Source: a bacterium | GTDB taxonomy: Bacteria; 4484-113; JAFGCY01 | Direction of reading: 5' to 3' | Length of the DNA stretch: 64,000 nt | Assembly: GCA_020440605.1 (NCBI GenBank) | Contig: JAGRNT010000007.1 | Location: 55,083-119,082, forward strand | In this document: one piece after another, positions 18,677 to 62,755 of the stretch | Numbering within the stretch: the stretch's first letter is position 1 | Layout: every line of letters begins with the position of its first letter | Program-made: the position numbers and the translations under genes | Notes under the pieces: generated by a model | What the model saw: the letters and a program-made list of their open reading frames with translations, nothing else | What the model was told of the DNA's origin: nothing | The model's database searches: none

Positions 18677-18790
18677 GCAGGTGATATCGGCCGGCAGCGC
18701 ACTGCGGCGCAGTTTGGAATCGTGGTCATATGAATCCGGTAAAGGAACTGTTAAAGTTCACCTGTACTTAACCCAACAGCGGAGTGCACG

Positions 18791-37311: not shown

Positions 37312-37690
37312 CGGTGGCTTCAAGCCGCCCGGGTAGGTTGGATGTTGGAGTGGGGAGTGTAGCTCTGGGAGCTACAGGGCCTTGTCGGTCTAAGACCGAC
37401 ACTCCGGAGCCAGCGCAGCTACGGCTTAGCCTCCGCAACGCGGCTCCTTCCGTTGCCAGGCTTACAGCTTGGCCTCCCCTAAGCAATGAGTTGCGAAGAG
37501 TGAGCAATGAGTGATTCGCAGGTCGAAGTTTACACCAGCCCTTCCCAGGCTCATGGCTCATTCTTCATTGCTCATCACTAGCCAGTCCGGAATGTTCCGG
37601 CGGCGGCATCCGTCGCCCGACTGACATCGAGCCTCCGCCTACCGCTGAAGCGGGTAGCTCTGTTGTGCGACTTGCGCCGCACTTCCATCA
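37312..37690. repeat. mosaic repeat element copy D (GGTTGGATGTTGGAG module, core 37355-37405, GCTTACAGCTTGGCCTCC module, GCGAAGAGTGAGCAATGAG module, CCGCTGAAGCGGGTAGCTCTGTTGTGCGACTTGCGCCGCA tail)
   Basis: seen directly. Confidence 0.7.
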
Positions 37691-38368
37691 GCCGTCGTTG
37701 ACGACCTCGAGCTTGATGTGCTGGTGGCGGATGATCTCACCCTCCACCATGAACACCACGTCCTCGGCGATGTTCGTGGCCTGGTCCGCGATGCGCTCCA
37801 GGTGCCGGCTGGACATCATCAGCTCGATGTTCTGCTGCGAGTTCTGCGGATTGGCGACCAGGTTGTCGGTCAGCTCGTTGATGATGCGCTCATTGGCGGC
37901 GTCGATCACATCATCACGGGCAATCACCGCGCGGGCCAGTCCGGCGTCCAGGTTGACGAGCGCCTTGAGGCTGTCCCCGACCATGGCCCGCACCTGCTCC
38001 GCCAGTGCCGTGAGCTGCGGGCGTCCCGCCGGAGTCGGCATCTGCGAGAGCCGCAGGGCGCTGCGGGCAATGTTGCAGGCCAGGTCACCCATCCGCTCCA
38101 GCGTGCTGTTGACCTTGATGGAAGCCACTATGAAGCGCAGGTCCGTGGCCACCGGCTGGTGCAGAGCCAGCAGCTTCAGGCAGTCCTCCTCGATGTCAAC
38201 CTCGAGCTGGTCGATGGTCTGGTCGAGTTCCAGCACCTCCTGGGCCAGCTCGGGCCGCTGGCCGGCAAGGGCGGCTATCGCCTTCTGGATCGAGCTCTCC
38301 ACCAGGCCGCCGATCTCGAGGATGTGGCGCTCGATGGAGCTCATGTCGCGGGTCAGATGCTTGTTCAT
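37688..38368 (-). CDS. phoU: phosphate signalling complex protein PhoU
   Basis: 226 aa; two PhoU repeats. Confidence 0.9.
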   Translation of the reverse strand: MNKHLTRDMSSIERHILEIGGLVESSIQKAIAALAGQRPELAQEVLELDQTIDQLEVDIEEDCLKLLALHQPVATDLRFIVASIKVNSTLERMGDLACNIARSALRLSQMPTPAGRPQLTALAEQVRAMVGDSLKALVNLDAGLARAVIARDDVIDAANERIINELTDNLVANPQNSQQNIELMMSSRHLERIADQATNIAEDVVFMVEGEIIRHQHIKLEVVNDG

Positions 38369-38392
38369 TGTTTGCTCCAGTGCTCCGGTGGA

Positions 38393-39274
38393 TCAGCCGA
38401 ATCGGCCGGTGACGTACTCTTCCGTCTGCTTCTGGCCGGGACGCGTGAACACCTGCTGGGTCTCACCGAATTCTATCAGCTTGCCGAGCACCATGAAGGC
38501 GGTGTAGTCGGAGACGCGGGCAGCCTGCTGCATGTTGTGCGTCACGATCACGATCATGTAGTCCTTGCGCAGTTCCAGCAGCAGGTCCTCGATCGCCGCG
38601 GTGCTGATCGGATCCAGCGCCGAGCAGGGCTCATCCAGCAGGATCACCTCCGGGCGGATGGCAACGGTGCGCGCGATGCAGAGGCGCTGCTGCTGTCCGC
38701 CGGAGAGGCTCATGCCGTTGGCATGCAGCTTGTCCTTGACCTCATCCCACAGCGCGCTCTTGCGCAGGCAGTCCTCGACGCGGGCGTCGATCTCGCTCTT
38801 GGGCAGCTTTTCGTAGAGCTTGATCCCGAAGGCGATGTTGTCATAGATGCTCATCGGGAAGGGCGTCGGCTTCTGGAAGACCATCCCGACGCGCGAACGC
38901 AGCAGGTTCAGGTCCAGTCCCTGGCGCAGGATGCTCTCACCCTCGAGTGTGACCTCGCCCTCGGCGCGCTGGCCGGGGTAGAGGTCGTACATCCGGTTGA
39001 GCACGCGCAGCATGGTGGACTTGCCGCAGCCGGAGGGGCCGATGAAGGCCGTCACACGCCGGTCGTAGAGCGGCAGGTTCAGGTTGAAGAGGGCCTGGCT
39101 GTTGCCATAGAAGAAGTTCAGGTTGCGCAGGGTCATCTTCTCATGCAGATCCTGCGCCGTGCTGTCATCTCCACTGGTATCACGCACCATCAGCTCGGCC
39201 TTCATGGTGGGCAGCTTCGGGCGTTCATCACGTCCGGGGACGCTGTCCGCGGATTCCATCTTGATCCTATCCAT
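38393..39274 (-). CDS. pstB: phosphate ABC transporter ATP-binding protein PstB
   Basis: Walker [10 protein letters not shown], signature [13 protein letters not shown]. Confidence 0.9.
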
Positions 39275-40193
39275 TCTTGCTCCTTTGCGTGCCGAGAGTG
39301 CGGGCGAAGATGCTCAGCATCAGGACTGCACTGGTGATCAGCAGGGCACCGACCCAGGCCAGGCGCTGCCATTCCTCGTAGGGACTCATTGCGTACTGGA
39401 AGATCACCACCGGCAGGTTGGCAAGCGGGTGGTTCAGCTCCAGGCTCCAGAACTGGTTGTTGAGCGCGGTGAACAGCAGCGGGGCGGTCTCACCGCTGAT
39501 CCTGGCAACAGCCAGCAGCACACCGGTGATGATCCCGGCCCGGGCGGCCCGGTAGGCCACGTGGCGGATCACCAGCGAGCGCGGCATGCCGAGTGCTGAG
39601 GCCGCCTCGCGCAGGTGCACCGGCACCAGGTTCAGCATGTCCTCGGTGGTGCGGACCACAACCGGGATCACGATGATCGCCAGCGCTACGGCTCCGGCCA
39701 GGCCGGAGAAGTGTCCGCCGAGCTCCACGTTGATGGCACCGCCGAACAGGTTGCCGGGCATCGGGATGGCGAACTCGATGTGCGGGGCCACGAGGATCGT
39801 GTAGACGAACAGGCCGATTACGATGCTCGGAGCACTCAGCAGGATGTCATTGATGAAGCGCACGAAGGTTGTCAGCTTCGAGTTGCGGCCGTACTCCGCC
39901 ATGTAGGTGCCGGCCAGGATGCCGATCGGTGTACCCATCAGCGTGCCGAGCACCGTCATGAACAGGCTGCCGACGATGGCATTCAGCAGGCCGCCGGAAT
40001 CACCGGGTGGCGGGGTCATCTCGGTGAAGACCTTCAGCTCGACGCCGGTTACACCTTCGAACAGGAGAGTGCCGAGGATCAGGGCCAGCCACATCAGGCC
40101 GATACCGGCGGCGGCGACACAGAGGGTCATCATCACCGAGTTGCGCAGCTTGCGGCTGGCGTAGAGGCGCATGTCCATATTGACAGCTGACAT
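39267..40193 (-). CDS. pstA: phosphate ABC transporter permease PstA
   Basis: 6-TM permease; operon position; overlaps pstB start. Confidence 0.85.
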
Positions 40194-41188
40194 CAGTTTC
40201 CCAGCCTCCGCTCAATCCGCATCAGCATCAGGCGGGCAGCCGCCAGCACGATGAAGGTGATCACGAACAGGATGAAGCCCAGCGCGAACAGGGTGCTGGA
40301 GTACAGTCCGGGGTCGGCCTCGGTGAACTCATTGGCAATGGTCGCCGAGATCGTGGTGCCGGGATCGAGGAATGACGGGTTGATGCGGTGCGCGTTGCCG
40401 ATCACGAAGGTGACGGCCATGGTCTCACCGAGCGCACGGCCCAGTGCCAGCATCCCGCCGCCGATCACGCCGACGCGGGTATGCGGGATCACCACCTTGC
40501 GCACGACCTCCCAGGTGGTGCAGCCCAGTCCGTAGGCGGCTTCCTTCAGCACGGCCGGGACGGTCTCGAATACGTCGCGGCTGACGGAGCTGATGAAGGG
40601 GATGATCATGATAGAGAGGATCAGCGAGGCGGTAAGCACGTTTGTCCCGTAGGAGCCGTTGGCGAATAGGGCGTTGAGCAGCGGGATCGGTGCAAAGAAC
40701 TTCACCAGTGCGGGGTTGACATGCTCCGCAAGGAAGGGGGCGAAGATGAACAGGCCCCAGATACCGTAGATGATGCTCGGCACGCCGGCCAGCAGCTCGA
40801 CTGCGATGCCGATCGGCTTGCGCAGCGCCATCGGGCAGGTCTCGGTCAGGAAGATCGCAATCCCGAGCCCGATCGGCATGGCGATTGCCATGGCGATCAG
40901 CGAGGTGATCAGGGTTCCGTAGATCGCCGGCAGTCCGCCGAAGATCTCTTTGGGCGGGCTCCAGCGCTGGCTGACGAAGAATTCCCAGCCATATGCCTGG
41001 AAGGCCGGCAGGGCACCGCGGAACAGCGCGACCATCACTCCCGTGAGAATGATGACCACGGTCCAGCAGGCGATCAGGGTGGTGAGTGAGAATGCGCGGT
41101 CTCCCTTGGCAAAGCCGCGCAGGACCCTGCTGCGCTGCTCAGTCAGTTTCGCCGCATCCAGGCCCACATTTAGCATGGTTCCAGACAT
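40193..41188 (-). CDS. pstC: phosphate ABC transporter permease PstC
   Basis: operon position; GGAAGG RBS before ATG at 41188. Confidence 0.85.
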
Positions 41189-41342
41189 CTGCCTTCCGTT
41201 GCTTGTCCTCGCCGTCGCCGGCGGGCGGGGTGCGGCTTCCAGACATTTAATTCCTGGTTGAGCCGGCTGCTGATATTGAATCAAACCAGTATGAAGATAA
41301 TGTGAAGATTGCCGTCGGATTGCGTAAATGCTAAAAGGACTC

Positions 41343-41378
41343 CCCCCGCCGTTAAGCGGGAGAAGTCCTCCATACGTC
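41343..41378 (-). terminator. imperfect hairpin + U-tract between pstS-1 and pstC (partial terminator/attenuator)
   Basis: GGACTTCTCCCGC-TTAA-CGGCGGGGGGAGTCC then TTTT on minus strand. Confidence 0.4.
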
Positions 41379-42601: not shown

Positions 42602-42644
42602 TGTTATACCTCCGTTATAGGCAGGGAGAATGTACTGAGGCCGT

Positions 42645-42671
42645 GTGTGAATTTCGTGAAGATAACGTGAA
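42645..42671 (-). promoter_or_regulatory. Pho-box-like triple direct repeat TTCAC-N6-TTCAC-N4-TTCACA upstream of pstS-1
   Basis: GTGAA at 42647, 42656, 42667 (spacing 9 and 11), 46 nt upstream of ATG. Confidence 0.5.
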
Positions 42672-42770
42672 TCCACATGAATTCTTGACAAATCAGCTGC
42701 ATTGGCAACTCTGTGGATTGCCGGACTCCCGGCTCACGGGACAGCTGCATCACCGTCCGGGCTTGCCTGC

Positions 42771-42819
42771 AAAATGCAGAGGCTCCCCCGCAGGCAACTT
42801 GCACCTTCGGGAGAGCCTC
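42771..42819 (-). terminator. hairpin + U-tract after pstS-2
   Basis: GAGGCTCTCCCG...CGGGGGAGCCTC stem then TGCATTTT. Confidence 0.4.
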
Positions 42820-42839
42820 ATCTGGTCGAAGCCTGGGGC

Positions 42840-43925
42840 TTAGATCAGCGGCTTGCCGTTGGCACCCTTGATCTCCTTGGACCACATCGCCTCGACACTG
42901 TCCACAACGGACTTCGGCATCGGGATGTAGTCCAGGCCGAGCGCCTCGGTGTCACCCATCTCAAAGGCCCACTTGAAGAACTTCAGGGCCTGGGTGGAAG
43001 CGGCGTCATCCTCGGGGCTCTTGTACATCAGGATGAAGGTGGCGGCGGTCATCGGCCAGGTGGAATCGCCGGGCTGGTTGGCGAGGATCACACCGTAACC
43101 GGGCACGCTGCTCCAGTCAGCACTGGCGGCGGCGGCGGCAAAGGCATCGGCATCGGGGCTGACGGCCTTGCCGGCCTTGTTGATCATCTTGGTATACGTC
43201 AGACCGTTCTGCTTGGCATAGGCATACTCGACGTAACCGATGCTGTTCTTGGCGCCGGCCACGTTCTGGGCCACGCCCTCGTTGCCCTTGGCACCGATGC
43301 CGACCGGCCACTCGACGGCCTTGTCAACGCCGATCTCGCTCTTCCACGTGCTGCTGACATCAGCCAGGTAGTAGGTGAAGTTGTAGGTGGTGCCGGAACC
43401 GTCGGAGCGGGTGACCACGTTGATGCTCGTGCTCGGCAGGCTGACGCCGCCGTTGAGCTTGGCAATCGCGGGATCGTTCCACTTGGTGATCTTGCCCATG
43501 AAGATGTTGGCAAGCGTGCTGCCATCCAGCACGAGCTGGCCGGGCTTGACACCCTCCACGTTGATGACGGGGACGATGCCGCCCATCACCATCGGCCACT
43601 GCACGAGGCCGGACTCGCTGAGTTCCTGGCCGCTGAGCGGGGCGTCGGTGGCACCGAAGGTCACGGTCTTGGCCTTGATCTGCTTGATGCCGCCGCCGGA
43701 ACCGATGGACTGGTAGTTCAGACCGATACCGGTTTCCTTCTGGTAGCTGTCAGCCCACTTGGAATAGATCGGATACGGGAAGGTCGCTCCCGCGCCGGCG
43801 ATCTGCTCGGCTGCGCTGGCGGGCGTGCCGCGGAAACCGGCAGCCAGGGCAGCGAGAATGACAACTCCGGTGAAGACCAGCATGGCCTTCAGCGGATTAC
43901 TGTTCAGGTTCTTACCTGTGCGCAT
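42840..43925 (-). CDS. pstS: phosphate-binding protein PstS (copy 2)
   Basis: GGAGG RBS; signal peptide; no S/T linker; ~85% identical mature domain to copy 1. Confidence 0.85.
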   Translation of the reverse strand: MRTGKNLNSNPLKAMLVFTGVVILAALAAGFRGTPASAAEQIAGAGATFPYPIYSKWADSYQKETGIGLNYQSIGSGGGIKQIKAKTVTFGATDAPLSGQELSESGLVQWPMVMGGIVPVINVEGVKPGQLVLDGSTLANIFMGKITKWNDPAIAKLNGGVSLPSTSINVVTRSDGSGTTYNFTYYLADVSSTWKSEIGVDKAVEWPVGIGAKGNEGVAQNVAGAKNSIGYVEYAYAKQNGLTYTKMINKAGKAVSPDADAFAAAAASADWSSVPGYGVILANQPGDSTWPMTAATFILMYKSPEDDAASTQALKFFKWAFEMGDTEALGLDYIPMPKSVVDSVEAMWSKEIKGANGKPLI

Positions 43926-43969
43926 TGTTATACCTCCGTTATAGGCAGGGAAAATGTACTCAGGCAGTA

Positions 43970-43995
43970 TGTGAATCAAGTGAAGGACAGGTGAA
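43970..43995 (-). promoter_or_regulatory. Pho-box-like triple direct repeat upstream of pstS-2
   Basis: GTGAA at 43971, 43980, 43991 (spacing 9 and 11), 46 nt upstream of ATG; leader duplicated from pstS-1. Confidence 0.5.
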
Positions 43996-44027
43996 CCCGG
44001 GTAATTTACTGGGGAAACGGCTGGTTG

Positions 44028-45818
44028 TCAGTTTCCCCGCAGTTCGGAAGGGAAGCTCAGAATGAACTCAGAACCCTCTCCGGGACTGCTCTTGATGCGC
44101 ACCTCACCGCCGTGGGCAATCATCACGTGCTTGACGATCGCGAGCCCGAGCCCGGTGCCGCCGAGCTGGCGGGAGCGCGCCTTGTCAACGCGGTAGAAGC
44201 GCTCGAAGATCCTGGCGTGGTGTTCCTCGGGAATGCCGAGCCCGTAGTCGCGCACGCTGATGAAGGGGCTGCTGCCCTCCAGACCGACCCGGACCTCCAC
44301 AAGCTGCCGGCTGCCGGCGTACTTGATGGCATTGTCCACGAGGTTGCCGATGGCCAGCAGCAGGTTCTCCTGGTCGCCCATCACGCGGATCGGCTGATCA
44401 GGAAGGCTGAGCCGGATCTCCACCCCCGCTGATTCACTCTTGGCCGAGCAGTTGTCAATGGCCAGACGGGCTGTCGAGGCGAGATCCAGCGGCTCGTCCT
44501 CCCGCTCATGGAAGCCGTGCTCCACGCGCGAGAGTGAGAGCATGTCGTTAACGAGCCCGCTCAGGCGCAGTGACTCATCGAGGATACTGCCCATGAATCG
44601 GTCGCGCACCGCATGCTCCATCTCCGGGTCGCTGATGATGGTCTCCGCCAGGCCGCGGATCGCGGTCACAGGGCTCTTCAGTTCATGGCTGGCATTGGCA
44701 ATGAACTGCGTGCGCATGTGCTCGAATTCATGCGTGCCGGTGATGTCGCGGATGATGCCAACCGCGCCGAGCACGCCTTCCGTGGCATCCCGCCAGGGAG
44801 TGACGATGATGCTGATCCAGCGGTTGCTGCCGGTGCCGACCAGTTCCAGCTCGCGCTGGATGGTGCTGCCGTTGCTGATCGCCGCCGAGAGGGCCTGTAC
44901 CAGTTCAGGCACCGTCAGGCATTCCCAGGCATGTCGCCCGGCGATGGCGTCATACTCCTGGCGGCAGTAGCCGGCAGCAACGCGGTTGACGTGCACGATG
45001 CGTTCCTGGCTGTCAACGGCGATCAGGCCCTCGCTCATGCTGGAAAGGATCGCCTCGAGCTGGCTGCGGTCGCGGGCGATCGTCAGCATCCGCTGGGCCA
45101 GGCTGTCTGACATGCTGTTGAGCATTTCCGCAAGCTGTCCGAGTTCATCATGGGTCATGACTTCCGCCCGCTTGCTGTAGTTGCCGCGGCTGATTCCACG
45201 GGCGACCTCCATCATGCGCGTCACCGGCCGGGTCACGCGGCGCGCGAACAGCAGGCCGAGCGGCAGGCTGACAAGCAGGGTGATCCCCGTACCCATCAGC
45301 ACGCTGAGACGCAGGGCGCTGAGCTGGTTGTCAATGTCACTGAGAGGCAGGGAGGTGCGCACATAGCCGGTCAGGCGACTGCCATCGTGCACCGCCACCG
45401 CGTAGTACATCATCCGCTCATGCACGCTGCGACTGAAGCGCCGGGACATACCGCTGCCGCTGCTGCCCGCGGCAAGCAGTTCGGGGCGGTTGGCATGGTT
45501 CTCCATCTCCGCTGCCGCCATATGCGAATCCGCCAGCACCACACCATCATCACGGATAACCGTGAAGCGCGTGGCAGTGGCCCGGCCGAGATCCTTGAGC
45601 TGGTCATCAAGCGCCGGCAGGGCTGCGCCAGCCTGCAGGCTGTCCTGGGCCATGGCTTCGAGCATCAGGCATTGCTGCTGCAGCGATCGCTCGATGCGCA
45701 GCAGTGAGTCTGCGGAGATCCGGAACTGGATCAGCAGTCCGACGGTCAGGGCGGTGAGCACGATCAGGATCGCGTACACCGAGTACAGCTTCCAGAAGAA
45801 CTGCGTACGCAGGGCCAT
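44028..45818 (-). CDS. phoR: phosphate regulon sensor histidine kinase PhoR
   Basis: TM-HAMP-PAS-HisKA (HELKSP)-HATPase_c; overlaps phoB stop. Confidence 0.85.
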   Translation of the reverse strand: MALRTQFFWKLYSVYAILIVLTALTVGLLIQFRISADSLLRIERSLQQQCLMLEAMAQDSLQAGAALPALDDQLKDLGRATATRFTVIRDDGVVLADSHMAAAEMENHANRPELLAAGSSGSGMSRRFSRSVHERMMYYAVAVHDGSRLTGYVRTSLPLSDIDNQLSALRLSVLMGTGITLLVSLPLGLLFARRVTRPVTRMMEVARGISRGNYSKRAEVMTHDELGQLAEMLNSMSDSLAQRMLTIARDRSQLEAILSSMSEGLIAVDSQERIVHVNRVAAGYCRQEYDAIAGRHAWECLTVPELVQALSAAISNGSTIQRELELVGTGSNRWISIIVTPWRDATEGVLGAVGIIRDITGTHEFEHMRTQFIANASHELKSPVTAIRGLAETIISDPEMEHAVRDRFMGSILDESLRLSGLVNDMLSLSRVEHGFHEREDEPLDLASTARLAIDNCSAKSESAGVEIRLSLPDQPIRVMGDQENLLLAIGNLVDNAIKYAGSRQLVEVRVGLEGSSPFISVRDYGLGIPEEHHARIFERFYRVDKARSRQLGGTGLGLAIVKHVMIAHGGEVRIKSSPGEGSEFILSFPSELRGN

Positions 45819-46510
45819 CAGTCCTCCCGGAAGCGGTATCCCACCCCGCGCACGGTTTCCACGAGCTCACGCTGTTCCCCCAGCTTCTTGCGGATCGACT
45901 TCACGTGCGTGTCAATGTTGCGTTCGATCACGATCCCGCCGCTGTTGCCCGTGAGCGAGAGGATTTCCTCGCGGCTGAAAACGCGGCCCGGACTGCGCAT
46001 TAGCAGGCTCATGATCTGGAACTCGGAGGGAGTGAGTTCCACCAGTTCATCCGCAACGTAGAAGCGGTGGCGCTCAGTATCTATCCGCAAGCCGCCGGCA
46101 TTGATCACGGTGCGGCTGCCGTCCTGGGCCTGGTGCAGGCGGCGCAGGCTGGCCTTGACGCGGGCCACGAGCTCGCGCGGGCTGAAGGGCTTGACGATGT
46201 AGTCGTCCGCACCGATTCCCAGGCCGAGCACTACGTCGGATTCCTCCGAACGCGCGGTGACCATCAGCACGGGAATATGGCGCAGCGAGATATCCGTCTT
46301 CAGGTTCTGGCAGATCTGGATGCCGTCCATGCCGGGCAGCATGATGTCCAGCAATGCCAGATCGGGCTTTTCGCGGCGGATCATGTCGATACCTTCGACA
46401 CCATCACGCGCTTCCAGCACGCGGTAGCCTTCACGGCGCAGGTTGTAGGAAATCACCTCGAGGATGTTGTTCTCATCCTCGACGACGGCGATGCGGTACT
46501 GTCTGCTCAT
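45818..46510 (-). CDS. phoB: phosphate regulon response regulator PhoB (OmpR family)
   Basis: receiver + winged helix (VRGVGYRF); AGGAAA RBS before ATG 46510. Confidence 0.85.
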   Translation of the reverse strand: MSRQYRIAVVEDENNILEVISYNLRREGYRVLEARDGVEGIDMIRREKPDLALLDIMLPGMDGIQICQNLKTDISLRHIPVLMVTARSEESDVVLGLGIGADDYIVKPFSPRELVARVKASLRRLHQAQDGSRTVINAGGLRIDTERHRFYVADELVELTPSEFQIMSLLMRSPGRVFSREEILSLTGNSGGIVIERNIDTHVKSIRKKLGEQRELVETVRGVGYRFRED

Positions 46511-46601
46511 TTCAGTTTCCTGTTGTGATTTGCCGGACAGGTGCCTATGATCCTGTTCGGACACTTTCGGGAAAATATGCAGACGGGGTATAACACCATT
46601 G

Positions 46602-46636
46602 ATTATACACAAGCCTGCCCCGGGGGCGGGGCAGGC
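46602..46636. promoter_or_regulatory. TGTATAAT -10 element (minus) abutted by perfect 10-bp-stem hairpin GCCTGCCCCG-GGG-GCGGGGCAGGC in phoB/HTH divergent region
   Basis: seen directly. Confidence 0.3.
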
Positions 46637-46744
46637 GCATTTCTTTTCGAACGTATCGCGGCTGAAATTCCTGAATACAGCCACTACGGCTAAATCCCGG
46701 TTCACTGCACGCTGGGTCCAGTTCCCTGTGTTTCAACTTAGGCA

Positions 46745-47275
46745 GTGAACATTCGCAGCAACATCTTCGCGGAAGTGATTGAAGAAGCCTGCAGGCAACG
46801 CGGCTGGAATCTATCACAGCTTGCGCGCCACGTGGGGAAGAGTGCCACAACTCTGGCCCGCTGGAAGGAAAGCACGAGTGGGAGCTGCGATGTATATGCG
46901 CTGGCTGAGATCTTCCGACTGGCGGGTCTCAGCATGGATGAAGGATTCAGGCTGCGGGACCATGCTCTCACACATGCGGTTTCTGAAAATGCGCAGCTGC
47001 GCGGTGAACTGGATGACTTGCGAGGCCAGCTTGACCGGCATGAAAGCGTGCTCAACGGCCTGCACAGCGTCTTTGCCCTGCTCGGTGAAGGTTCCGTTCG
47101 TCTCACGGCAGCTTCCGGGAGGAAGGAATCACAAGTGCAGGCTGAGCAGGAAAGCTGTCTGAGTGATGTGCTCTCCAGCCTGGACAGGACCATAGACCAG
47201 ATCGACCGGCTGCCCGGCGAGGATTCCGCAAGGCTGGATGAGGATGAGGACTTCGGCTGGCAACGCCGGGCCTGA
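46745..47275 (+). CDS. XRE-type HTH domain protein with C-terminal coiled coil (paralog of 61603..62040)
   Basis: LSQLARHVGKSATTLARW HTH; LAGLSMDEGFRL block shared with paralog. Confidence 0.6.
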   Translation: MNIRSNIFAEVIEEACRQRGWNLSQLARHVGKSATTLARWKESTSGSCDVYALAEIFRLAGLSMDEGFRLRDHALTHAVSENAQLRGELDDLRGQLDRHESVLNGLHSVFALLGEGSVRLTAASGRKESQVQAEQESCLSDVLSSLDRTIDQIDRLPGEDSARLDEDEDFGWQRRA

Positions 47276-47294
47276 GCCCTGATGGAAAAGCAGG

Positions 47295-48227
47295 ATGCGT
47301 GAAACTGAGACAAACTATGCCTGGCTGGCCAACCTGGCAAAGCTTGCCACGGAACATTTCCATGCCGGAGACTCGGCAGCGCTGGCAGGCGTACTGCGGC
47401 GACTGCGGAGCATGGCCGGCAGCTGCAGCAGCGGCACGAATCTGACGAGCTATGAGACGACCGTCTGCCGCTGCCTGCTGCTCTTTGGCTCTCTGCGACT
47501 CGATGCCGGAGATTTCGCAGGCTGCCGCCAGGCGAGCATCGATGCCTGCCGGATCCTTGACAACAAGCGACTGAGGCTCGAACATGCAGGCGAACAGGCT
47601 CGGCCAGACAGCCTTGCCTGGCTGGCAGTCCTGAAACTGGAGGCTGACATGTCCTGGCTGGCGCTGCCTGAGGATGAGGTCCAGTCTCTGGCAACAACAG
47701 ACATTGCCCAGCGCATGGGGCATGCTCTGCGTGCCCTGGAGATCGGCCTCAGCCGCAACCGCAGCATGAATCCGGAACGAAGGCGAAACATTGAAGTCCA
47801 GCAGCTTGCCTGCCTTTCGTCATTGCAGCGGATTGCCCTGCGCGATGACTGTGCACTGCACGAGCAGCTCCGTGCCGAATACAGATATCAGCTGGAACCG
47901 GTTGCCACTGATGAATCCAATCCCTTCCACTGGGAACTGTTCATCGCCCAGAGCCATCTGCAGGGCAGGCTTGACTCGCCGCAGCATACTCGCCTGGCGA
48001 GGATCAGACGTGAAGCCTATCTTGCATGCTACCCCGAGTTTGTGGACGAGCGGCATTTCGGACGGCTGGCTGCTCTGGAGAAGCGCAGGTTCTTCAGCGA
48101 TGAAGCATCACTGGTACCACTCGGGAGCATCGAGCACGACATGCAGCAGGTCGTCAATGTCAGTGTCGGGCATGAGCGCGGACTGCACCTCGTCCTGGAT
48201 GGCCTCCATCAGGGCCGTAGAATCTGA
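47295..48227 (+). CDS. hypothetical protein
   Basis: 310 aa; no recognisable domains; 3' end overlaps convergent lipoprotein ORF by 120 nt (one of the two ends is likely miscalled). Confidence 0.35.
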   Translation: MRETETNYAWLANLAKLATEHFHAGDSAALAGVLRRLRSMAGSCSSGTNLTSYETTVCRCLLLFGSLRLDAGDFAGCRQASIDACRILDNKRLRLEHAGEQARPDSLAWLAVLKLEADMSWLALPEDEVQSLATTDIAQRMGHALRALEIGLSRNRSMNPERRRNIEVQQLACLSSLQRIALRDDCALHEQLRAEYRYQLEPVATDESNPFHWELFIAQSHLQGRLDSPQHTRLARIRREAYLACYPEFVDERHFGRLAALEKRRFFSDEASLVPLGSIEHDMQQVVNVSVGHERGLHLVLDGLHQGRRI

Positions 48228-48479
48228 GGCGAAGCTGCTGCCGTTGTAGAGATCGCCTAGATCCTCCTGGGTATAGGGCGTCATCAGCACGCCGGCGGGG
48301 CAGGCATCGAAGTTGCAGCTGCTGCAATGGATATCCCAGGCGTTGACGACATCCGCCCGGCTGGTGGCAACCTTCACACTGCGGGGCAGCGCGGATTCGG
48401 GGGAGGGGGCAGCGGATGAACCGCAGCCGACAAATACAAATACGCTGACAATGAAGCAAATCCCAAACAAAACTCGCAT
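48108..48479 (-). CDS. hypothetical lipoprotein
   Basis: signal peptide with lipobox FVGCG; TTAAGA-N16-TATAAT promoter at ~48513-48540 (minus). Confidence 0.5.
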   Translation of the reverse strand: MRVLFGICFIVSVFVFVGCGSSAAPSPESALPRSVKVATSRADVVNAWDIHCSSCNFDACPAGVLMTPYTQEDLGDLYNGSSFASDSTALMEAIQDEVQSALMPDTDIDDLLHVVLDAPEWYQ

Positions 48480-48703
48480 ACAGGCACCTCTATTCAGGGA
48501 GAAAAGTGCCAGATTATACCAGTATTAAGGGTGTTCTTAAATGCGATTTGGCAATTGTACCGGAAGTCGGCGGCAGGACATATTCACATTGTCAATATTC
48601 AATTCGTCGGCCCTGAAATCCGAATGATCCACTTTTGCCGGACAATCTGCAATGATTCAGGGACGATCATGCAGCTTTGTCGAAGGCCAGGGTGTTTCCG
48701 CGC

Positions 48704-49114
48704 TCAGGCGTATGCGGTCTGGCTCATGGGCTTGTCGGTCAGGTTCAGCCTGGTGAGGGCCTCGGCAAGCTTGGTATCGCTGACCGGCTTGACGAGAATC
48801 GAGTTAACACCGGCCTCCATCAAGGGCAATGCCGTGTCCGGCGTGACGGAGGCGCTGATCACGATGATCTTGGTATCTCGGTTGACCGTACGGATCATCC
48901 TGGCGCATTCCAGCCCGTTGCAGACCGGCATCTCATAGTCCAGAATCACGAGTGAGGGCTGGAGCGAATTCACCTGCTCAGCTCCCAGCACGCCGTTGTC
49001 AGCCAGTCCGACGATCCGGATGCCGTGGTACTCCAGCGTCCGGGCGAAGCGGAAGCGGAATACCTTGCTGTCGTCAATTACCACTGCGGTGTGTTCCATC
49101 TCTGCAAGTTCCAA
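48704..49114 (-). CDS. stand-alone CheY-like receiver protein
   Basis: 136 aa; VVIDDS, ILDYEMP, KP motifs; paralog of 62312..62755. Confidence 0.75.
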   Translation of the reverse strand: MELAEMEHTAVVIDDSKVFRFRFARTLEYHGIRIVGLADNGVLGAEQVNSLQPSLVILDYEMPVCNGLECARMIRTVNRDTKIIVISASVTPDTALPLMEAGVNSILVKPVSDTKLAEALTRLNLTDKPMSQTAYA

Positions 49115-49221
49115 GATCTGAGATAGGGGATTCTATCCGAACCGGCAGACCAATAATGGACCTGCCGCCAGGTAATTCTGTACCGTCCTTCAGATTCAAC
49201 TCTGGCAACACGAAAAAGCAA

Positions 49222-49244
49222 GGTTGATTGCCACAAACTTGCCA
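49222..49244. promoter_or_regulatory. GTTGATTGCCACAAACTTGCCAC motif upstream of receiver gene
   Basis: matches GTTGATTGGCAAAT upstream of the paralogous receiver at 62081. Confidence 0.3.
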
Positions 49245-49391
49245 CTCCGCCGGACGGTTCGGACACAATTCCGCGGAACCGCAGGGATATCCAGCGAAAG
49301 CGCAGGATTCCTCCACGGAATCGCAGACTTAAATCAGGATTAAGACTTGGTTGCCGGTTCCCGGCAGGCTGCCGTCATTCGCAAACCGGAT

Positions 49392-49424
49392 AAAAAAACG
49401 GGGAGGCCTGGGCTGGCCTCCCCG
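49392..49424 (-). terminator. rho-independent terminator after nucleotidase gene
   Basis: GGGGAGGCC-agccc-AGGCCTCCCC followed by TTTTTTT on minus strand. Confidence 0.65.
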
Positions 49425-49480
49425 GATGCTGGTGGTCCCCGGTGTCTTTTCACCGGAATGAGGATGGTTAAACGAGGGAT

Positions 49481-52400
49481 TTACTCCGTCACATTGAGCA
49501 CCCAGCTGACGACGGTTCCGCTGTCCTCACATGCGTAGAGGACAAGCGGCTTGCCGTAGGGGTTCATGTCAGCCGGAATGAACTGGAATCCTTCAGGAGC
49601 GATGTCCACCATCGTTCCGTCGGGGTTTGTGGTCACGTAGTCGAGGCGGGTGGCGCTTGCCGGATTGCTGATGTCGTAGATGAACATCCCGCCCTGGCGC
49701 TCCAGGCCGATGAAGCCGAAGGTCGTGCCGCGGTAGGATCCGACGCACAGGCCCTCGGGCTCGCAGCCCTTGTCGTCACTGCGGGCATCGAACTCGCCGA
49801 TGTCACCGTCGTTCATGTTGAAGACCGAGGCATAGTTGGCCGCGAGGTACTGCTCGAACTCATCGCCGCTGTCGTAGACCTGGGAACCCGCGTTCCAGAT
49901 GCTGAAGCTGCGTCCGCCGTAGCCGTAGATCTCGTCGTAGTCTCCGTCATCATCCGTGTCACCGTTGGCGAGGGTTACCTTGAAGCGGCCGAGCATGCCG
50001 TCCTCGAGCAGGGTCGCCTCATCGGGCCACAGCGTGTCGTCCAGATCGAGATCCTTGGCACGGGCCTCCTCGGAGTAGCCGCCGTAGTCGCGGGAGTCGC
50101 CTTCGTTGGCACCGATCGTGTAGAACACGCCGTTGGCAGCAAAGCTCTTGACCGTGTCGGGCATATAGAAGGTCTTCACAGGCCAGTTGCCGAGCTTGAT
50201 CGAGGCGGTGTCGCCCGGGCCGTCACGGTCGGAGACGTCGATCATCGGACCGCCGGTGGACCAGTCCTTGGTGCCCAGCGCATACAGGTTGGTGATGCTG
50301 TAGTCCGAGAGGTCGATCTCCAGCAGGGCGTTGTTCTCCTGGCAGGCAACCCAGGCCATGCTGTTGTCCGGTGCGATGGCGATGTACTCGGGTTCGAGGT
50401 CCTCAGCCAGGTTGCTCGGCACGTCACCGGGCTGCTTGATGCCGAACACTCGCACGCCCGCTGCCTCATAGGCAGCCTGATCCACGTTGAGACCGGTGAA
50501 GGGGATCTGGGTGATGACGGGGCTGGCGAGGTCGCCGGTCACGTCAATCACGGTCACGCTGCCCTCGGGGTCGATCGTCCAGTCATCGCTGGGCTGGCCC
50601 TCGTTGGCGGTCAGCAGCAGGCGGTGGTCGTTGGTCAGCACCACGTTGTCAGGCAGCACACCCGTCGGGTTGCTGGAAATCAGCGCCAGCGTCATCGCAT
50701 CGTAGATGTTGCAGACGCCGGGATCCGTCTCCGGGTCAGCGGCGATGGAGACGGCGACGTAGCCCTCCCAGGCCACGCAGCTGGTCGGGCTGCCATAGCT
50801 GCTGGTGTCAATGCCGGCACCGGCATCCACCGGGGCGGAGGGATCAGAGTAGTCAATCACACTGACGGACTGCGATCCGGCGTTGGTCAGGAAGATCCGG
50901 CGGCTGTCGGGGTCGTAGGTCACGATCTCCGCGGAGCCCGCGCCCAGTCCCGTATCAAAGGTAGACAGGTAGTCGAAGCTCCAGCTGCCGGGATTGACGG
51001 TCTGGATGCGGCGCTCGCCGGGCAGGATGTTCATGTCACCATCCTCGCCTTCGTACGGATACTGCTCCGCGCTGACAACTCCCCCGAGGCCGTCCTCGAT
51101 GTAGTTGCGCAGCGCCTGCTGGTAGCTGACACCGAGGGTGTAGAGCTTGTCGCCGACAAACGGGCTGCCGTCGCCGCCGCGGGCCAGGAAGTCAATCGTC
51201 GCCAGGTTGATCTTCGTGTCCGGGTTGAGCACGATGCCGTCGCTGATGAACTGCGTGCCGTCCCTGAACCAGGCGTTCTGCACGCGGGTACCGCTGCCGG
51301 GGCTGCCGAAGACGTAGGGATCGCCGTCCTTGTCGTAGACGAAGCGCAGGCCGCTGACCTGCAGGAAGCCGCCGCTGGTGCCCTGCACGCCGTTGACGGC
51401 GCTCTCCAGGATGTCACGCAGGGTACTGTGGCTGACGCCCTCGAGGATCGTGACGAAGTTCGGGAAGGCGTTGATGTCGAAGGTGTCGAGCTCGGTGATG
51501 TTGCCGGGCTCGATGATCGCGTCATTGCGCATGCCGCCGCCGTTCTGGAAGGCGACATCGGCATGCGGAGCACTGAAGCTGTCAGCCAGTTCGTTGGCCT
51601 GCCAGAGCAGGGCATCGGCGTCGAGGTTGCCGAGGTTGGTCTCGGAGTTGCGCACGCCGACGATGGAAGGCCTGTCATTCACGTCATCCCAGCCACCGCG
51701 GCGGCCATTGAGCGGAACCTCTGTGGTACCGATCACATTGGCAGCCAGCGCGGCCAGGCTGCTGCTGACAGGGGTGGTCACGCTGCTCTCGATGGCGGCA
51801 TTGCCGATCACGGCGTCCGGGTAGTCGCTGTTGGCGACGCGCTGCAGGCCGGAGTGGTCATCCACCACACCGGTCACCTCGCCGGCGTCGTTGAACTCAA
51901 CCGTAAGCTGGCCGACGTACTTGTAGTTTCCGGGCGTGGTGACGACCGGGATGTCCTTGCCATCAGCATCCTGCAGGATCACGGGGTAAGTGCGGCCCGC
52001 CACCGGCTCGTCACCGGGGATCAGGTTCTCGCTGGCATCACCGTTGGCAAGCAGTTCATCACCGCCGCCGGCGACCGCGATGTCGATGCCGCGCAGGGTG
52101 GAGATCAGGGCCTCATCCTCGCCGATGCCCTGCATGTGGGAGATCAGCACGATGATGTCCACGCCCTCGCTCTCGAGGCTGTCAACCTCTGCCTGGATGC
52201 TGGACTGCGCGCTGAGCACGCTGACATTGCGCGGGTTGGAGAACTCGGCATGCACGCCGGTCTCGCTCACGCCGCGCGGGCTGGAGATGATGTCAAGCAG
52301 CTCGGTGGTTGCGCCGACGATACCGATCTTGCGGCCGCCCTTGGTGACGGTCACGCTCTTGAACAGGCGGTCGTCGACGAGTGCCTGAAGATTCGGCTCA

Positions 52401-53608
52401 TCCGTATAATCCAGGTTGCTGGAGAGGTAGGGCACGCTGCTGGAGAACTCATTGATGAAGTCCGCGAGCACATCCGGTCCGAAGTCGAAGTCGTGGTTGC
52501 CGAGGCAGATCGCGTCGTAGCCGATCGCGTCCAGCACCAGCGCGTCGTAGTAGGTGCCGTCCTGCAGGCTGGCGTTGAACTCCGCACCGGCGAGGAAGTT
52601 GTCACCGCTGGAAACCGTGATGCTGGCATCCGCGAAGCTGCCGGAGTCAGTGCGCAGCTCATTGAGCTTCGTGATGAAGTTGGCAGCGCCGCCGAAGCTG
52701 GAGAGGTTGCCGCTGTCAGGCAGTTCCTCGCTGCCGGCGTTGAGCAGCTGGCTTTCACCGTCGTTGTTGTGGAACAGGGTGAGCGTGAAGGGCTCGGGCT
52801 CCACATCAAGGGGTGCAACCGTGAAGCTGCCACTGGCGCTGTCGCCATTGCCGTTGGCATCCAGCACGGTCACGCTGTATGTATATGTCTTGGCAGCGCT
52901 CGTGCTGTTGAGCATCTGCACCGTGCGGCTGTCAGGGCTGGTGGCAGAGCTGGACTGCGCGGTATTCGGATCCGCACCGCCGCCGAAGTTCCACTCAATG
53001 CTGTAGGGGGCCTCACCGCCGCTCCAGCTGGCCTGCCAGAGGGCATCCTCAGCCGCCTTGAGCCCGGAGGGCACGGTCACATTCAGTTCAGGCATGCTCA
53101 CTTCAAGCTCGCTGCCGGCCACGAAGGAACCGAAGCGCGTGCTGTTCACCGTGGCCGTACCGCCCTGTACGTTCACCTTGCCGAGGCTGGTCCAGCCGGG
53201 GACGGCGGAAACGGAGCTGTCGTTGAAGCGGTAGACTTCCACCTCACCTGTCGCGCTGCCCGCGGGCACGCTGATGCTGACACTGCGGTCGAAAACGCAG
53301 TCCGCAGGGCCGAAGGCCACGCTGCCGAAGCGGGTGGCGGTGAAGCTGTCCAGCACCGACTGGCTGACCGCCCCGCTGCTGAACTGGATCGTGCCGTTGC
53401 TGACCGAGTCACTGGTGACGATGCTGCCCGCCGGAATGCTGGCGACTGCGCCGTTGCTCCCGGTGACCGTCTCGGCCTGGCTGATGGTGGCCTCATTGTC
53501 CGGCTGTTTCGGACCGCCGCCTCCACCACATGCCGCGCAGCTCAGCGCCAGCAGCAGGGAGATGCTCAGCGAAGCCAGGAGCTGGCCCGCAAAATGTTTC
53601 CTGTACAT
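49481..53608 (-). CDS. secreted lipoprotein: PKD-like domain + metallophosphatase/5'-nucleotidase + C-terminal beta-propeller (choice-of-anchor I / phytase-like) domain
   Basis: GAGGAGG RBS, lipobox LSCAAC; LTLFHNNDGES and ICLGNHDFDFGPD metallophos motifs; 5'-nucleotidase C-terminal domain; ~500-aa C-terminal propeller. Confidence 0.8.
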   Translation of the reverse strand: MYRKHFAGQLLASLSISLLLALSCAACGGGGGPKQPDNEATISQAETVTGSNGAVASIPAGSIVTSDSVSNGTIQFSSGAVSQSVLDSFTATRFGSVAFGPADCVFDRSVSISVPAGSATGEVEVYRFNDSSVSAVPGWTSLGKVNVQGGTATVNSTRFGSFVAGSELEVSMPELNVTVPSGLKAAEDALWQASWSGGEAPYSIEWNFGGGADPNTAQSSSATSPDSRTVQMLNSTSAAKTYTYSVTVLDANGNGDSASGSFTVAPLDVEPEPFTLTLFHNNDGESQLLNAGSEELPDSGNLSSFGGAANFITKLNELRTDSGSFADASITVSSGDNFLAGAEFNASLQDGTYYDALVLDAIGYDAICLGNHDFDFGPDVLADFINEFSSSVPYLSSNLDYTDEPNLQALVDDRLFKSVTVTKGGRKIGIVGATTELLDIISSPRGVSETGVHAEFSNPRNVSVLSAQSSIQAEVDSLESEGVDIIVLISHMQGIGEDEALISTLRGIDIAVAGGGDELLANGDASENLIPGDEPVAGRTYPVILQDADGKDIPVVTTPGNYKYVGQLTVEFNDAGEVTGVVDDHSGLQRVANSDYPDAVIGNAAIESSVTTPVSSSLAALAANVIGTTEVPLNGRRGGWDDVNDRPSIVGVRNSETNLGNLDADALLWQANELADSFSAPHADVAFQNGGGMRNDAIIEPGNITELDTFDINAFPNFVTILEGVSHSTLRDILESAVNGVQGTSGGFLQVSGLRFVYDKDGDPYVFGSPGSGTRVQNAWFRDGTQFISDGIVLNPDTKINLATIDFLARGGDGSPFVGDKLYTLGVSYQQALRNYIEDGLGGVVSAEQYPYEGEDGDMNILPGERRIQTVNPGSWSFDYLSTFDTGLGAGSAEIVTYDPDSRRIFLTNAGSQSVSVIDYSDPSAPVDAGAGIDTSSYGSPTSCVAWEGYVAVSIAADPETDPGVCNIYDAMTLALISSNPTGVLPDNVVLTNDHRLLLTANEGQPSDDWTIDPEGSVTVIDVTGDLASPVITQIPFTGLNVDQAAYEAAGVRVFGIKQPGDVPSNLAEDLEPEYIAIAPDNSMAWVACQENNALLEIDLSDYSITNLYALGTKDWSTGGPMIDVSDRDGPGDTASIKLGNWPVKTFYMPDTVKSFAANGVFYTIGANEGDSRDYGGYSEEARAKDLDLDDTLWPDEATLLEDGMLGRFKVTLANGDTDDDGDYDEIYGYGGRSFSIWNAGSQVYDSGDEFEQYLAANYASVFNMNDGDIGEFDARSDDKGCEPEGLCVGSYRGTTFGFIGLERQGGMFIYDISNPASATRLDYVTTNPDGTMVDIAPEGFQFIPADMNPYGKPLVLYACEDSGTVVSWVLNVTE

Positions 53609-53684
53609 GGGATCCTCCTCGATAGCGGCACCAGCTCTTAAGCGTGCCGTCGTTGCCATCAGGCGCAATGCTAGAACGCTGTTA

Positions 53685-53710
53685 TGTGAATGGCGTGAAC
53701 CCGTAGTGAA
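53685..53710 (-). promoter_or_regulatory. Pho-box-like triple direct repeat upstream of nucleotidase gene
   Basis: GTGAA at 53686, 53695, 53706 (spacing 9 and 11), 78 nt upstream of ATG. Confidence 0.5.
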
Positions 53711-53945
53711 GAACCCTCAGGTTCAGGGCAAATGCGGTCCGATTGACAGCGCAGGCCGGTAATGCTAGATTCTTCCGGCGGTGCTCCCGGCACCGGACCT
53801 CCTGACCGCCCGCCTGCGCCGGACGGCACTGCGGAGGCGAAGGGGACCTCTGTTCTCCGGGACTGGCGACTCTGTATCATTCATCTGGTCCGCTGCATGG
53901 ACCGGGACCGCGCAGGGGTGGGAGTCCGTGCGGCCACTGGAGAGA

Positions 53946-55247
53946 ATGATGACGAAACGCAGCAGTTTCAAGAAGCTCGTACGCGAGCGGATGAAGAGGA
54001 CGGGCGAGAGCTACAGCTCGGCCCGCAGGCAGATCATTGCCGCAATGGCCCCCGCCGCGGGCCTGACCCATTTCCCCGGCACCAACCCCGGCAGCACGGC
54101 TCTGCGCATCCTGCTCAGTGCAGCCGGGATCATGAATCCGGCCACGCAACAGGCATTCAGCGAGTCGATGATTCTGGGAATCGCAGGTGGGCTGGGAGCA
54201 GGCGTCTTCACCTTCCGCTATGAACAGCATGACTTCAGTTCATTCTTTGCGGCTGGGCGGCATCTCTGGCATGACAACCTGCTGTACATGCAGGGATGTC
54301 TGGACCGGCTCGGCGTGGAATACAGGGTCTGGGAAAGCACTGCAGCGAAGAAGGGCTGGGAGCAGCTGCGCGAGGCACTGCAGCATGGCCCGGTGGCGGC
54401 CTGGCTGGACATGGCCGAGCTGCCATACCACGGCCTGCCGGCCTGGATGAGCGGCGGCGGCTATCACCTGCTGGTGATCCAGTCGCTTGACGAGGAACGC
54501 GAGCTGGCTGTGTTGAGCGACCTGATGGATGAAACAGTGGAATTGCCGTTTGCCGATCTCGAACGCGCGCGATTGCGGATCAAAAAGGACAAGCAGCGCC
54601 TGCTGGCAATCACCGGCCGCAGGCAGGCAGCCGGGCTGCAGCCTGCTGTGCTGGCGGGGATCAGAGCCTGCCGTGAGGGACTGACAACGGGAAGGATGAA
54701 GAACTTCACGCTGGCGGCCTTCGAGGACTGGGCGAAGCAGCTGCATGGCAGCTCCGGCAAGCAGAGCTGGAGCGTGCTGTTCCCGGCCGGGCGGCATCTC
54801 TGGACTGCCCAGACCTGGGCCTACGACTGCATCGAACACTACTTCAGCGGGGGCGGAATGCTCCGGCCAGTGTATGCCGACTTCCTGGAGGAGGCCGCTT
54901 CACAGGCGGATCTGCCGGAACTTGCGGAACTGGCAACCCAGTACCGCTCCATCGGCGCTCAGTGGAGCGCGCTGGCGGATACCCTGCTCCCAGCGGATGG
55001 CGGGCTGCTGGGACAGGCCCGCGAGTTATACGAGCTGCGGGCGGAAAGCTACAACAGTCCAGCGGAGGTCGAAGTGGAACGGGCGGAGATCATGACGCGG
55101 TTGGATGCACTGAAGCGCCAGGCGGCCCAGAGCTATCCGCTGGATGCGCAAGCCGTTGACAACATGCTCAGCAAGGCCCAGCAGCAGCTGCAGGAGATCT
55201 GCACTGCTGAGCGAGCTGCATTGGCCGGGCTCGGGGAGGTGCTGTGA
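53946..55247 (+). CDS. BtrH_N + DUF4872 domain protein
   Basis: N-terminal BtrH-like (butirosin BtrH N-terminal, papain-like fold) block ...GIAGGLGAGVFTFRYEQ...LPYHGLP...GGYHLLVIQSLDEE; start chosen at MMTKRS after GGAGAG. Confidence 0.55.
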   Translation: MMTKRSSFKKLVRERMKRTGESYSSARRQIIAAMAPAAGLTHFPGTNPGSTALRILLSAAGIMNPATQQAFSESMILGIAGGLGAGVFTFRYEQHDFSSFFAAGRHLWHDNLLYMQGCLDRLGVEYRVWESTAAKKGWEQLREALQHGPVAAWLDMAELPYHGLPAWMSGGGYHLLVIQSLDEERELAVLSDLMDETVELPFADLERARLRIKKDKQRLLAITGRRQAAGLQPAVLAGIRACREGLTTGRMKNFTLAAFEDWAKQLHGSSGKQSWSVLFPAGRHLWTAQTWAYDCIEHYFSGGGMLRPVYADFLEEAASQADLPELAELATQYRSIGAQWSALADTLLPADGGLLGQARELYELRAESYNSPAEVEVERAEIMTRLDALKRQAAQSYPLDAQAVDNMLSKAQQQLQEICTAERAALAGLGEVL

Positions 55248-62311: not shown

Positions 62312-62755
62312 ATGCGCGCCTTGATCATCGACGACAGTTCAATCTTCCGCAGGAGAATGTCATGCCTGCTGTGCTTTCTTGGCCACAGTGTCTGTGGAAT
62401 GGCTGAAGACGGCGTGATCGGAGCAGAGCTGGTGGGGATGCACCGGCCTGACTTCGTGATCCTCGACAACGAACTTGCCGGAATGCGTGGGGTTGAATGC
62501 GTCAGCCTGATCCGCCTTGCCAATCCCGGAAGCCGGATCATCCTGGTAAGCGGGGGCATCACTCCGGAGGAAGCGCTGGAGCTGTCACGGATGGGAACTG
62601 ATGCCGTGCTGCTCAAGCCGATCAGCGAGGCCAAACTGGCCAATCTGCTGCGCGGCTTCTCTCTGATGGAACAATTCAGTTCTCCCGGGGAAAGCCCGGC
62701 CTTGGTTAGAATTGAGGCTGGAGGCAGCAGTGGAAACAGTGAAACAGATACCTGA
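62312..62755 (+). CDS. stand-alone CheY-like receiver protein (paralog)
   Basis: [17 protein letters not shown] motifs. Confidence 0.75.

Follow-up and report, generated by a model that had tools for sequence, protein, structure and literature searches.

We analysed a 64,000-nt stretch of contig JAGRNT010000007.1 (positions 55,083 to 119,082 of the forward strand; hereafter the window) from a bacterium of candidate phylum UBP7, in which a minus-strand gene cluster in the order phoB-phoR-pstS2-pstS1-pstCAB-phoU lies close to a giant gene for a phosphoesterase (all positions in Table 1), and in which the upstream regions of pstS-1, pstS-2 and the giant gene share a repeated TTCAC element. Both pstS products exceed the NCBIfam equivalog cut-offs for PstS and share 86% identity with one another. 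A hairpin follows each pstS gene and the giant gene; the one 3′ of pstS-2 is long (about 42780-42821), and because of the terminator that follows the giant gene we regard this gene as monocistronic. A first-pass annotation of the window had placed GTGAA on the plus strand (TTCAC on the gene strand) three times upstream of each of the three genes, and reading of the sequence confirmed its starts at 42647/42656/42667, 43971/43980/43991 and 53686/53695/53706. The pattern TTCAC-N6-TTCAC-N4-TTCAC has three matches on both strands of the 64 kb, all on the minus strand (42647-42671, 43971-43995 and 53686-53710), compared with 0.00 expected from 100 dinucleotide-preserving shuffles of the window. A tolerance of 2 mismatches brought no extra match in the window, and the two half patterns (the N6 pair and the N4 pair) are each confined to the same three sites, with 0.04 expected. 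TTCAC/GTGAA pentamers number 133 in the window, and beyond the three sites they form one same-strand pair within 13 nt. All three sites lie on the gene strand, 46-70 nt upstream of the ATG in pstS-1 and pstS-2 and 78-102 nt upstream of that in the giant gene. The exact pattern was found in 0 of 77 unrelated loci (1.2 Mb).

An exact look-up of the PstS-2 sequence returned no record, and the window was placed by homology beside UBP7 genomes. The nearest genomes are metagenome-assembled genomes (MAGs) of candidate phylum UBP7 (L001, 88%; L002 and L005, 92%, L005 being the complete genome CP060262.1), and more distant giant-gene orthologs were found in L084 (79% identity), in L081/L087 (65%, a single 2.7-Mb contig) and in L085/L086 (63%). 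We collected 16 sites from six lineages, namely the window with L001, L002 with L005, L084, L088, L081 with L087, and L085 with L086. Anchored on the first repeat unit, the 16 sites align without gaps. Unit 1 is TTCAC apart from one CTCAC and one TTCAT, and unit 2 begins exactly 11 nt after it in 16/16 sites and is mostly TTCAC, with the variants TTCAT, CTCAC, TTTAT and TTTAA. Unit 3, another 11 nt on, is CACAC or CACAT within the window's clade and, outside it, TACAC, TCCAC, TCCAT, CTCAC, TTCAC (twice) or TTTCT (once), and is nearly always followed by an A. Across these lineages the repeat cores are kept and the spacers and flanks have diverged; between the window and L002, for example, the giant-gene upstream regions agree at 15/16 core positions, 5/12 spacer positions and 7/7 positions of the predicted -10 element, and their flanks are 34-43% identical. 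The element stands upstream of giant-gene orthologs at 88-92%, 79%, 65% and 63% protein identity, and similar sites stand upstream of pstS in L001, L002, L005, L084, L087 and L088, the site in L087 (on the same contig as L081) being TTCAC-N6-TTTAT-N6-TTCACA. In L002, L005 and L084 the giant gene, phoB, phoR, pstS2, pstS1 and pstCAB-phoU are contiguous and codirectional, and in L081 and L085 the giant gene lies away from the pst and pho genes and has nevertheless retained the element.

A position weight matrix (PWM) of 28 nt was built from the collected sites and used to scan the 64-kb window and related loci of ~24 kb each. The three window sites score 31-41, the next best match scores 18.9, and the shuffle maximum is 20.7. 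In the related loci high scores occur at orthologous sites only, the other matches (an array before pstC, and an inverted copy 5′ of phoB in L002/L005) being weak. Within the window and the related loci scanned, the motif is confined to pst and to the giant gene. A wider metagenome scan for TTCAC-N6-TTCAC-N4-TTCACA-N11-TA returned 96 stretches, mostly low in GC and belonging to unrelated repeat families; UBP-like sequences were absent from these 96, not one of them preceded a pst or phosphatase gene, and the scan did not extend the predicted regulon.

The comparison also changes how the third repeat is to be read. Repeats spaced by 11 and 9 nt, as the first-pass annotation had them, are true of all three window sites, but the 9-nt spacing is not a conserved feature among the relatives, and the formula TTCAC-N6-TTCAC-N4-TTCACA cannot stand as the conserved motif, as it is specific to the window's clade. 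Outside this clade the third unit matches TTCAC at 27/35 positions when read in the 11-nt register, compared with 14/35 in the 9-nt and 11/35 in the 10-nt register. Within the clade, the first two letters of the ‘9-nt’ TTCAC vary (TT, TC, TG, AG) and CACAYA is invariant. Because the 11-nt register fits better and CACAYA is invariant, the conserved element consists of three 11-nt units, and its architecture is best read, on this alignment, as TTCAC, TTCAC and yyCAY followed by A, all in 11-nt phase; on the same reading, the repeat formerly placed after N4 is the ‘tt’ and CAC of a degenerate third unit. A motif that is irregular in one genome (11 + 9 nt) thus becomes a regular 11-nt array when relatives are compared. 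Such phasing is in keeping with Streptomyces PhoP, for which 11-nt units are needed, a 10-nt unit is bound poorly, and weak units beside core units are bound cooperatively (PMC2275107), and with Mycobacterium tuberculosis PhoP, which requires a strict 4-bp spacer and reads the central base pairs of its motif best (PMC4832192). It is conceivable, though improbable, that sites of the window's clade carry two registers at once, with a perfect TTCAC 9 nt after unit 2 superimposed on the ancestral 11-nt-phased CAY core. If this were true, a third PhoB protomer could dock in either of two rotational settings; its contact with region 4 of sigma could be tuned in this way, or promoters could change from one activation strength to another. 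This would be unusual, since strict spacing is otherwise reported as a requirement of OmpR-family operators.

The distance from the element to a -10-like hexamer is equally regular. In 16/16 sites a TAnnnT hexamer, the predicted -10 element, begins exactly 26 nt downstream of the first base of unit 2 (TACATT, TAGCAT, TAAATT, TAACAT, TATAAC and TATCGT are the hexamers found at this offset), and unit 3 with its A ends 9-10 nt before it. A canonical -35/-10 pair was found at none of the three promoters of the window. The third TTCACA as a -35 element was considered and rejected, as its spacer to the -10 element is only 11 nt and nothing resembling a -10 element lies 17 nt downstream. Moreover, the pstS promoters carry a fourth upstream unit (TTCAT/ATTAC); L084 and L088 have the TTCAT of pstS-1 in their pstS promoters as well.

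Table 1. Positions of the elements and genes discussed (window coordinates, except for the last row)
Feature	Position	Strand	Remarks
pstS-1 Pho box (predicted)	42644..42671	-	TTCAC gttatc TTCAC gaaatt CACAC A; three 11-nt units; PWM 41.3
Third TTCAC of the pstS-1 box in the first-pass annotation	42647-42651	-	
Additional unit TTCAT	42677..42681	-	precedes unit 1 of the pstS-1 box by 10 nt; overlaps weak sigma70-like -10 (AAGAAT)
pstS-2 Pho box (predicted)	43968..43995	-	TTCAC ctgtcc TTCAC ttgatt CACAT A; PWM 31.3
Giant-gene Pho box (predicted)	53683..53710	-	TTCAC tacggg TTCAC gccatt CACAT A; PWM 30.9
Predicted -10 TACATT, pstS-1	42629..42634	-	starts 26 nt after unit-2 start
Predicted -10 TACATT, pstS-2	43953..43958	-	
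Predicted -10 TAGCAT, giant gene	53668..53673	-	invariant in L001, L002, L005 and L084
Giant gene, 1375-aa probable lipoprotein	49481..53608	-	probable lipoprotein signal
Intrinsic terminator 3′ of giant gene, strong	49399..49424	-	10-bp stem, 9 GC pairs, T run
pstS-1, phosphate-binding protein, 400 aa	41399..42601	-	NF008171 PstS, 407 bits (cut-off 339)
pstS-2, 361 aa, tandem paralog of pstS-1	42840..43925	-	NF008171, 424 bits
pstC, pstA, pstB, phoU	37688..41188	-	pstC start probably ATG 41188; phoU 37688-38368
phoB-like OmpR-family response regulator, 230 aa	45818..46510	-	start ATG 46510; presumed binder
phoR-like histidine kinase	44028..45818	-	sCache-like, HAMP, PAS, HisKA, HATPase
Candidate weaker internal box before pstC	41279..41306	-	TTCAC attatc TTCAT actggt TTGAT; PWM 17.1, within shuffle range
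176-aa open reading frame (ORF)	46745-47275	+	no Pfam match; N-terminus resembles XRE-type helix-turn-helix
310-aa protein, family unknown	47295-48227	+	
Single-domain CheY-like receiver	48704-49114	-	
Arrays in L013	19962-19989, 17469-17496	-	L013 coordinates

Pho boxes are 11-nt direct repeats, and that of Escherichia coli lies 10 bp upstream of the -10 element (PMC4415409, PMC1906773). A close likeness is to the PHO box of Streptomyces coelicolor PhoP (core GTTCACC), with which the UBP7 sites share the TTCAC core and strict 11-nt phasing (PMC2275107, PMC4415409); both have at least two units and tolerate weaker units beside core units (PMC2275107), and the S. coelicolor box lies 5′ of pstS and phosphatase genes under positive control (PMC2275107, PMC4415409), just as the present element lies 5′ of pstS and a phosphoesterase gene. 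However, the UBP7 sites conserve neither the flanking G nor the CC of GTTCACC, and in them unit 3 is systematically degenerate (yyCAY and A) and, in the window's clade, can also be read as a TTCAC shifted by 2 nt; and the host belongs to candidate phylum UBP7 and not to Actinobacteria. The E. coli Pho box (two 11-bp units, core CTGTCAT) is alike in its distance to the -10 element, which is a predicted one at our sites, the lack of a -35 element and its head-to-tail repeats (PMC4415409, PMC1906773), but differs in core sequence and in having a minimum of two units where the present promoters have three to four. The PhoR site of Corynebacterium glutamicum, CCTGTGAA-N3-CCTGTGAA, which reads TTCACAGG-N3-TTCACAGG on the other strand, has the TTCAC(A) core and the 11-nt period in common with our sites and is found at pstSCAB (PMC3353115), whereas the conserved AGG extension of its 8-bp unit is absent here. 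SphR of Synechocystis controls phoA-nucH and the pst operons through the consensus CTTAACCT (PMC1906773), cyanobacterial SphR boxes at sphX, pstS and phoA-nucH comprising at least three CTTAACCT units separated by 3-bp linkers. The core sequence of SphR boxes differs, but they share with the UBP7 sites the arrangement of three tandem 11-nt units at the Pst system as well as at the gene of a very large enzyme, an ‘atypical’ alkaline phosphatase or a nucleotidase type (PMC1906773). CTTAA repeats with 11-nt spacing that fit the SphR consensus were found upstream of homologs of the nucleotidase in 5/7 cyanobacterial loci (L049, L062, L057, L066 and L007, with two to four CTTAA(CCT)-like units each), which suggests that recruitment of this enzyme family into Pho regulons has happened repeatedly.

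In the 1375-aa protein, a region without family match (residues 1-270) precedes a UshA/CD73-like 5′-nucleotidase (about residues 273-822) and a choice-of-anchor I domain (residues 889-1366; PF22494, 356 bits compared with a cut-off of 32; NF038117, 433 bits compared with 300). The nucleotidase C-terminal domain is matched by PF02872 with 79 bits (cut-off 23.6), the Thermus 5′-nucleotidase 2z1a aligns to residues 273-816 (E 4.8e-36), CD73 also aligned, and the metallophosphoesterase motif GNHDFDFG (GNHD/E type) is present. The protein thus has the nucleotidase domain (residues 273-822) in common with 5′-nucleotidases of the UshA/CD73 type and differs from them in that this domain is fused to 270 N-terminal residues and to a choice-of-anchor I domain of 480 aa, for which a search by sequence gave no solved structure. 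Two homologs with 43% identity over 80% coverage (P0085 and P0089) were named ‘alkaline phosphatase’ by JGI, and the large ‘atypical’ PhoA of Synechococcus PCC 7942, reportedly described by Ray et al. in 1991 (cited in PMC4548154), would, going by its architecture, be the likely characterised relative. Among the 77 homolog loci outside UBP7, phoU is nearby in one (L007), and the linkage to pst is therefore lineage-specific and does not serve as general evidence. Beyond the giant-gene Pho box by 33 nt stands the near-consensus promoter (TTGACA-17-TAGATT with an upstream TG, 53743-53771, plus strand) of a divergent BtrH_N/DUF4872 gene (53781-55247). In L088 the BtrH_N/DUF4872 gene and phoB are immediate neighbours and the intervening giant gene is missing, and hence the giant gene was gained or lost at that position.

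Taken together, the motif is real, non-random, conserved in the aligned lineages and placed as expected of a Pho box. The likeness to a PhoP/PhoB box proposed in the first-pass annotation is borne out by the 11-nt direct repeats, the two pstS genes, the adjacent phoB-phoR and pstCAB-phoU, the spacing to the predicted -10 element and the conservation of the cores, and the three elements are probably Pho boxes that serve as operators for the adjacent PhoB-like regulator of the OmpR family. The annotation had also predicted the giant phosphoesterase to be a member of the Pho regulon, and this too is probable and well supported computationally, as the same element accompanies orthologs down to 63% identity, including two lineages in which the gene is unlinked from pst. 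PhoB is assigned as the regulator from genomic context, an assignment supported by the position of its gene between the giant gene and pstS, and we infer from sequence that PhoB is the binder, that transcription is activated, where it starts, and which substrates the enzyme uses. Under phosphate limitation, the PhoR-like kinase would phosphorylate PhoB, which would bind the three consecutive 11-nt units head-to-tail, the fourth upstream TTCAT joining the operator array at the pstS promoters. If TAnnnT is the -10 element, the array would extend from about -49 to -22 and cover the place of the -35 element, and bound PhoB would recruit the sigma70 holoenzyme to these promoters without a -35. The two pstS genes and the monocistronic giant gene would then be switched on as three separate transcription units, and the 1375-aa 5′-nucleotidase/choice-of-anchor-I phosphoesterase at the cell surface would free inorganic phosphate from organic phosphate.

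That the three elements resemble one another by chance, or as a legacy of the tandem pstS duplication, with no regulatory meaning, is effectively refuted. The pstS paralogs do have nearly identical 5′ untranslated regions besides being so similar in protein sequence, and the likeness of their promoters is partly inherited; but the spacers and upstream flanks of these two promoters have diverged with the cores kept, the giant-gene promoter shares with them only the cores and the -10 geometry, kept where the intergenic DNA has diverged, and zero matches are expected by chance. It is also unlikely that the boxes are operators or roadblocks for a repressor, placed just downstream of constitutive sigma70-like promoters. 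Such a reading would draw on the sigma70-like pairs directly 5′ of the pstS boxes (CTGACA-17-TAAATT, 44031-44003, and TTGCCA-16-AAGAAT, 42708-42681, minus strand), two being found compared with 0.5 expected, relative to which the boxes would sit at about +1 to +30. There is, however, no such upstream promoter at the giant gene, the hexamers overlap the fourth repeat unit, the feature conserved in 16/16 sites is the -10-like hexamer downstream with no -35, and known pstS promoters are activated by PhoB (PMC4415409, PMC2275107). In their own right, these sigma70-like promoters (9/12 matches) may give basal transcription or be chance matches.

Another OmpR-family regulator encoded elsewhere in the genome, by which pstS and the phosphoesterase would be jointly controlled under a different signal such as envelope or metal stress, is somewhat less improbable than a repressor but still unlikely; it is taken here together with the observations that weigh against a PhoB-operated Pho box. 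The best family of the response regulator is TIGR02154 PhoB, but with 239 bits it remains below the equivalog cut-off of 296; PDB sequence searches rank BaeR, MtrA and RegX3 above PhoB; and a further CheY-like gene is present at 48704-49114. No Pho box was found upstream of phoB in the window. Among the relatives, L082/L083, with an ortholog at 63%, offer only a doubtful TAAAC/CTTAC/TTAAT version, and L081 has two good units only. Moreover, a PWM scan of 0.70 Mb of unrelated GC-rich loci returned one high-scoring contig, Anaerolineales L013, where TTCAC-N6-TTCAC-N6-TTCACA-N10-TATAGT, with the same 26-nt offset, precedes a gene for a DUF2680 secreted protein, and a second copy (TTCAT-N6-TTCAC-N6-TTCACA, then TACCCT) precedes a GDT1 cation antiporter gene that is followed by genes for an OmpR-type response regulator and a kinase. 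This looks like a non-Pho regulon that uses the same type of repeat, and since these arrays stand at a non-Pho two-component locus, the motif type is not specific to PhoB but generic for OmpR-family regulators. Against an unrelated regulator of the UBP7 sites, on the other hand, speak the targets, two PstS genes and a secreted phosphoesterase, which form the canonical core of a Pho regulon, the embedding of phoB-phoR between these targets in every close lineage, and PhoB as the best-scoring family for the adjacent response regulator.

Weaker repeats occur elsewhere in the locus. The 210-nt spacer between pstS-1 and pstC contains a terminator-like hairpin (about 41332-41370) and, downstream of it, the candidate pstC box, which is part of an 11-nt-phased array at 41279-41328 on the minus strand (TTTAC-N6-CGACG-N6-TTCAC-N6-TTCAT-N6-TTGAT). 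L001, L002 and L005 share this array, but the entire pstS-1/pstC spacer is almost invariant there; the array may act on pstCAB-phoU as an internal promoter under Pho control. For pstC, ATG 41188 is the probable start and not the TTG at 41284. An inverted, weaker copy of the box (CACAC-N6-TTCAC-N4-TCCAC) lies at 14241-14268 of L002 and 14242-14269 of L005, both on the minus strand, with a TCCAC-N6-TCCAC version at about 7380-7400 of L084, and is absent from the window; it sits between the giant-gene terminator and the phoB promoter in lineages in which both genes are adjacent, and could be a reverse-orientation autoregulatory site of phoB. Two further candidates of the window were rejected with scores within the shuffle range. 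One (18727-18754, minus strand, TTAAC-N6-TTTAC-N4-TTCAT) has no -10 element at the expected offset and lies about 50 nt upstream of a gene (15926-18676) whose 916-aa product is a dockerin-containing S8 subtilase; the other (62391-62418) lies inside a gene and has no -10 geometry.

The phoB gene itself has a promoter with a consensus extended -10 element (TGTGTATAAT; TATAAT 46607-46602, in 46508-46610 on the minus strand). Its leader of ~90 nt opens with 18 nt (GTGTTATACCCCGTCTGC, 46596-46579) that do not vary among four lineages, and includes a stem-loop in which a few changes are compensatory; an Rfam search with the conserved leader gave no match. The closest families of the PhoR-like kinase are PnpS, PhoR and WalK, each below its cut-off. 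Between the giant gene and phoB, the window has an insertion (46745-49114) that is also found in L001, and its two plus-strand ORFs are present in L001 and have no counterpart in L002/L005; an ORF called at 46738-47697 on the minus strand was judged spurious, the real genes there being on the plus strand. The two PstS proteins of the window show 70-75% identity to their counterparts in Rhizobium, Mesorhizobium and Reyranella (Alphaproteobacteria), and such unusually high identity across phyla could reflect horizontal transfer or extreme conservation.

General understanding of Pho regulation is unchanged by these observations, which describe a switch of an ordinary type in an uncultured candidate phylum. 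The Pho-box model obtained here, with three 11-nt units, a PWM and a fixed distance to the -10 element, is usable to annotate phosphate-starvation regulons in UBP7 MAGs. It also proposes a physiological role for the large, widespread and uncharacterised fusion of a 5′-nucleotidase with a choice-of-anchor I domain, namely the scavenging of phosphate from nucleotides or other organic phosphate. If the predicted regulon is true, it would be the first to be defined for candidate phylum UBP7 and would link this fused enzyme to phosphate starvation.

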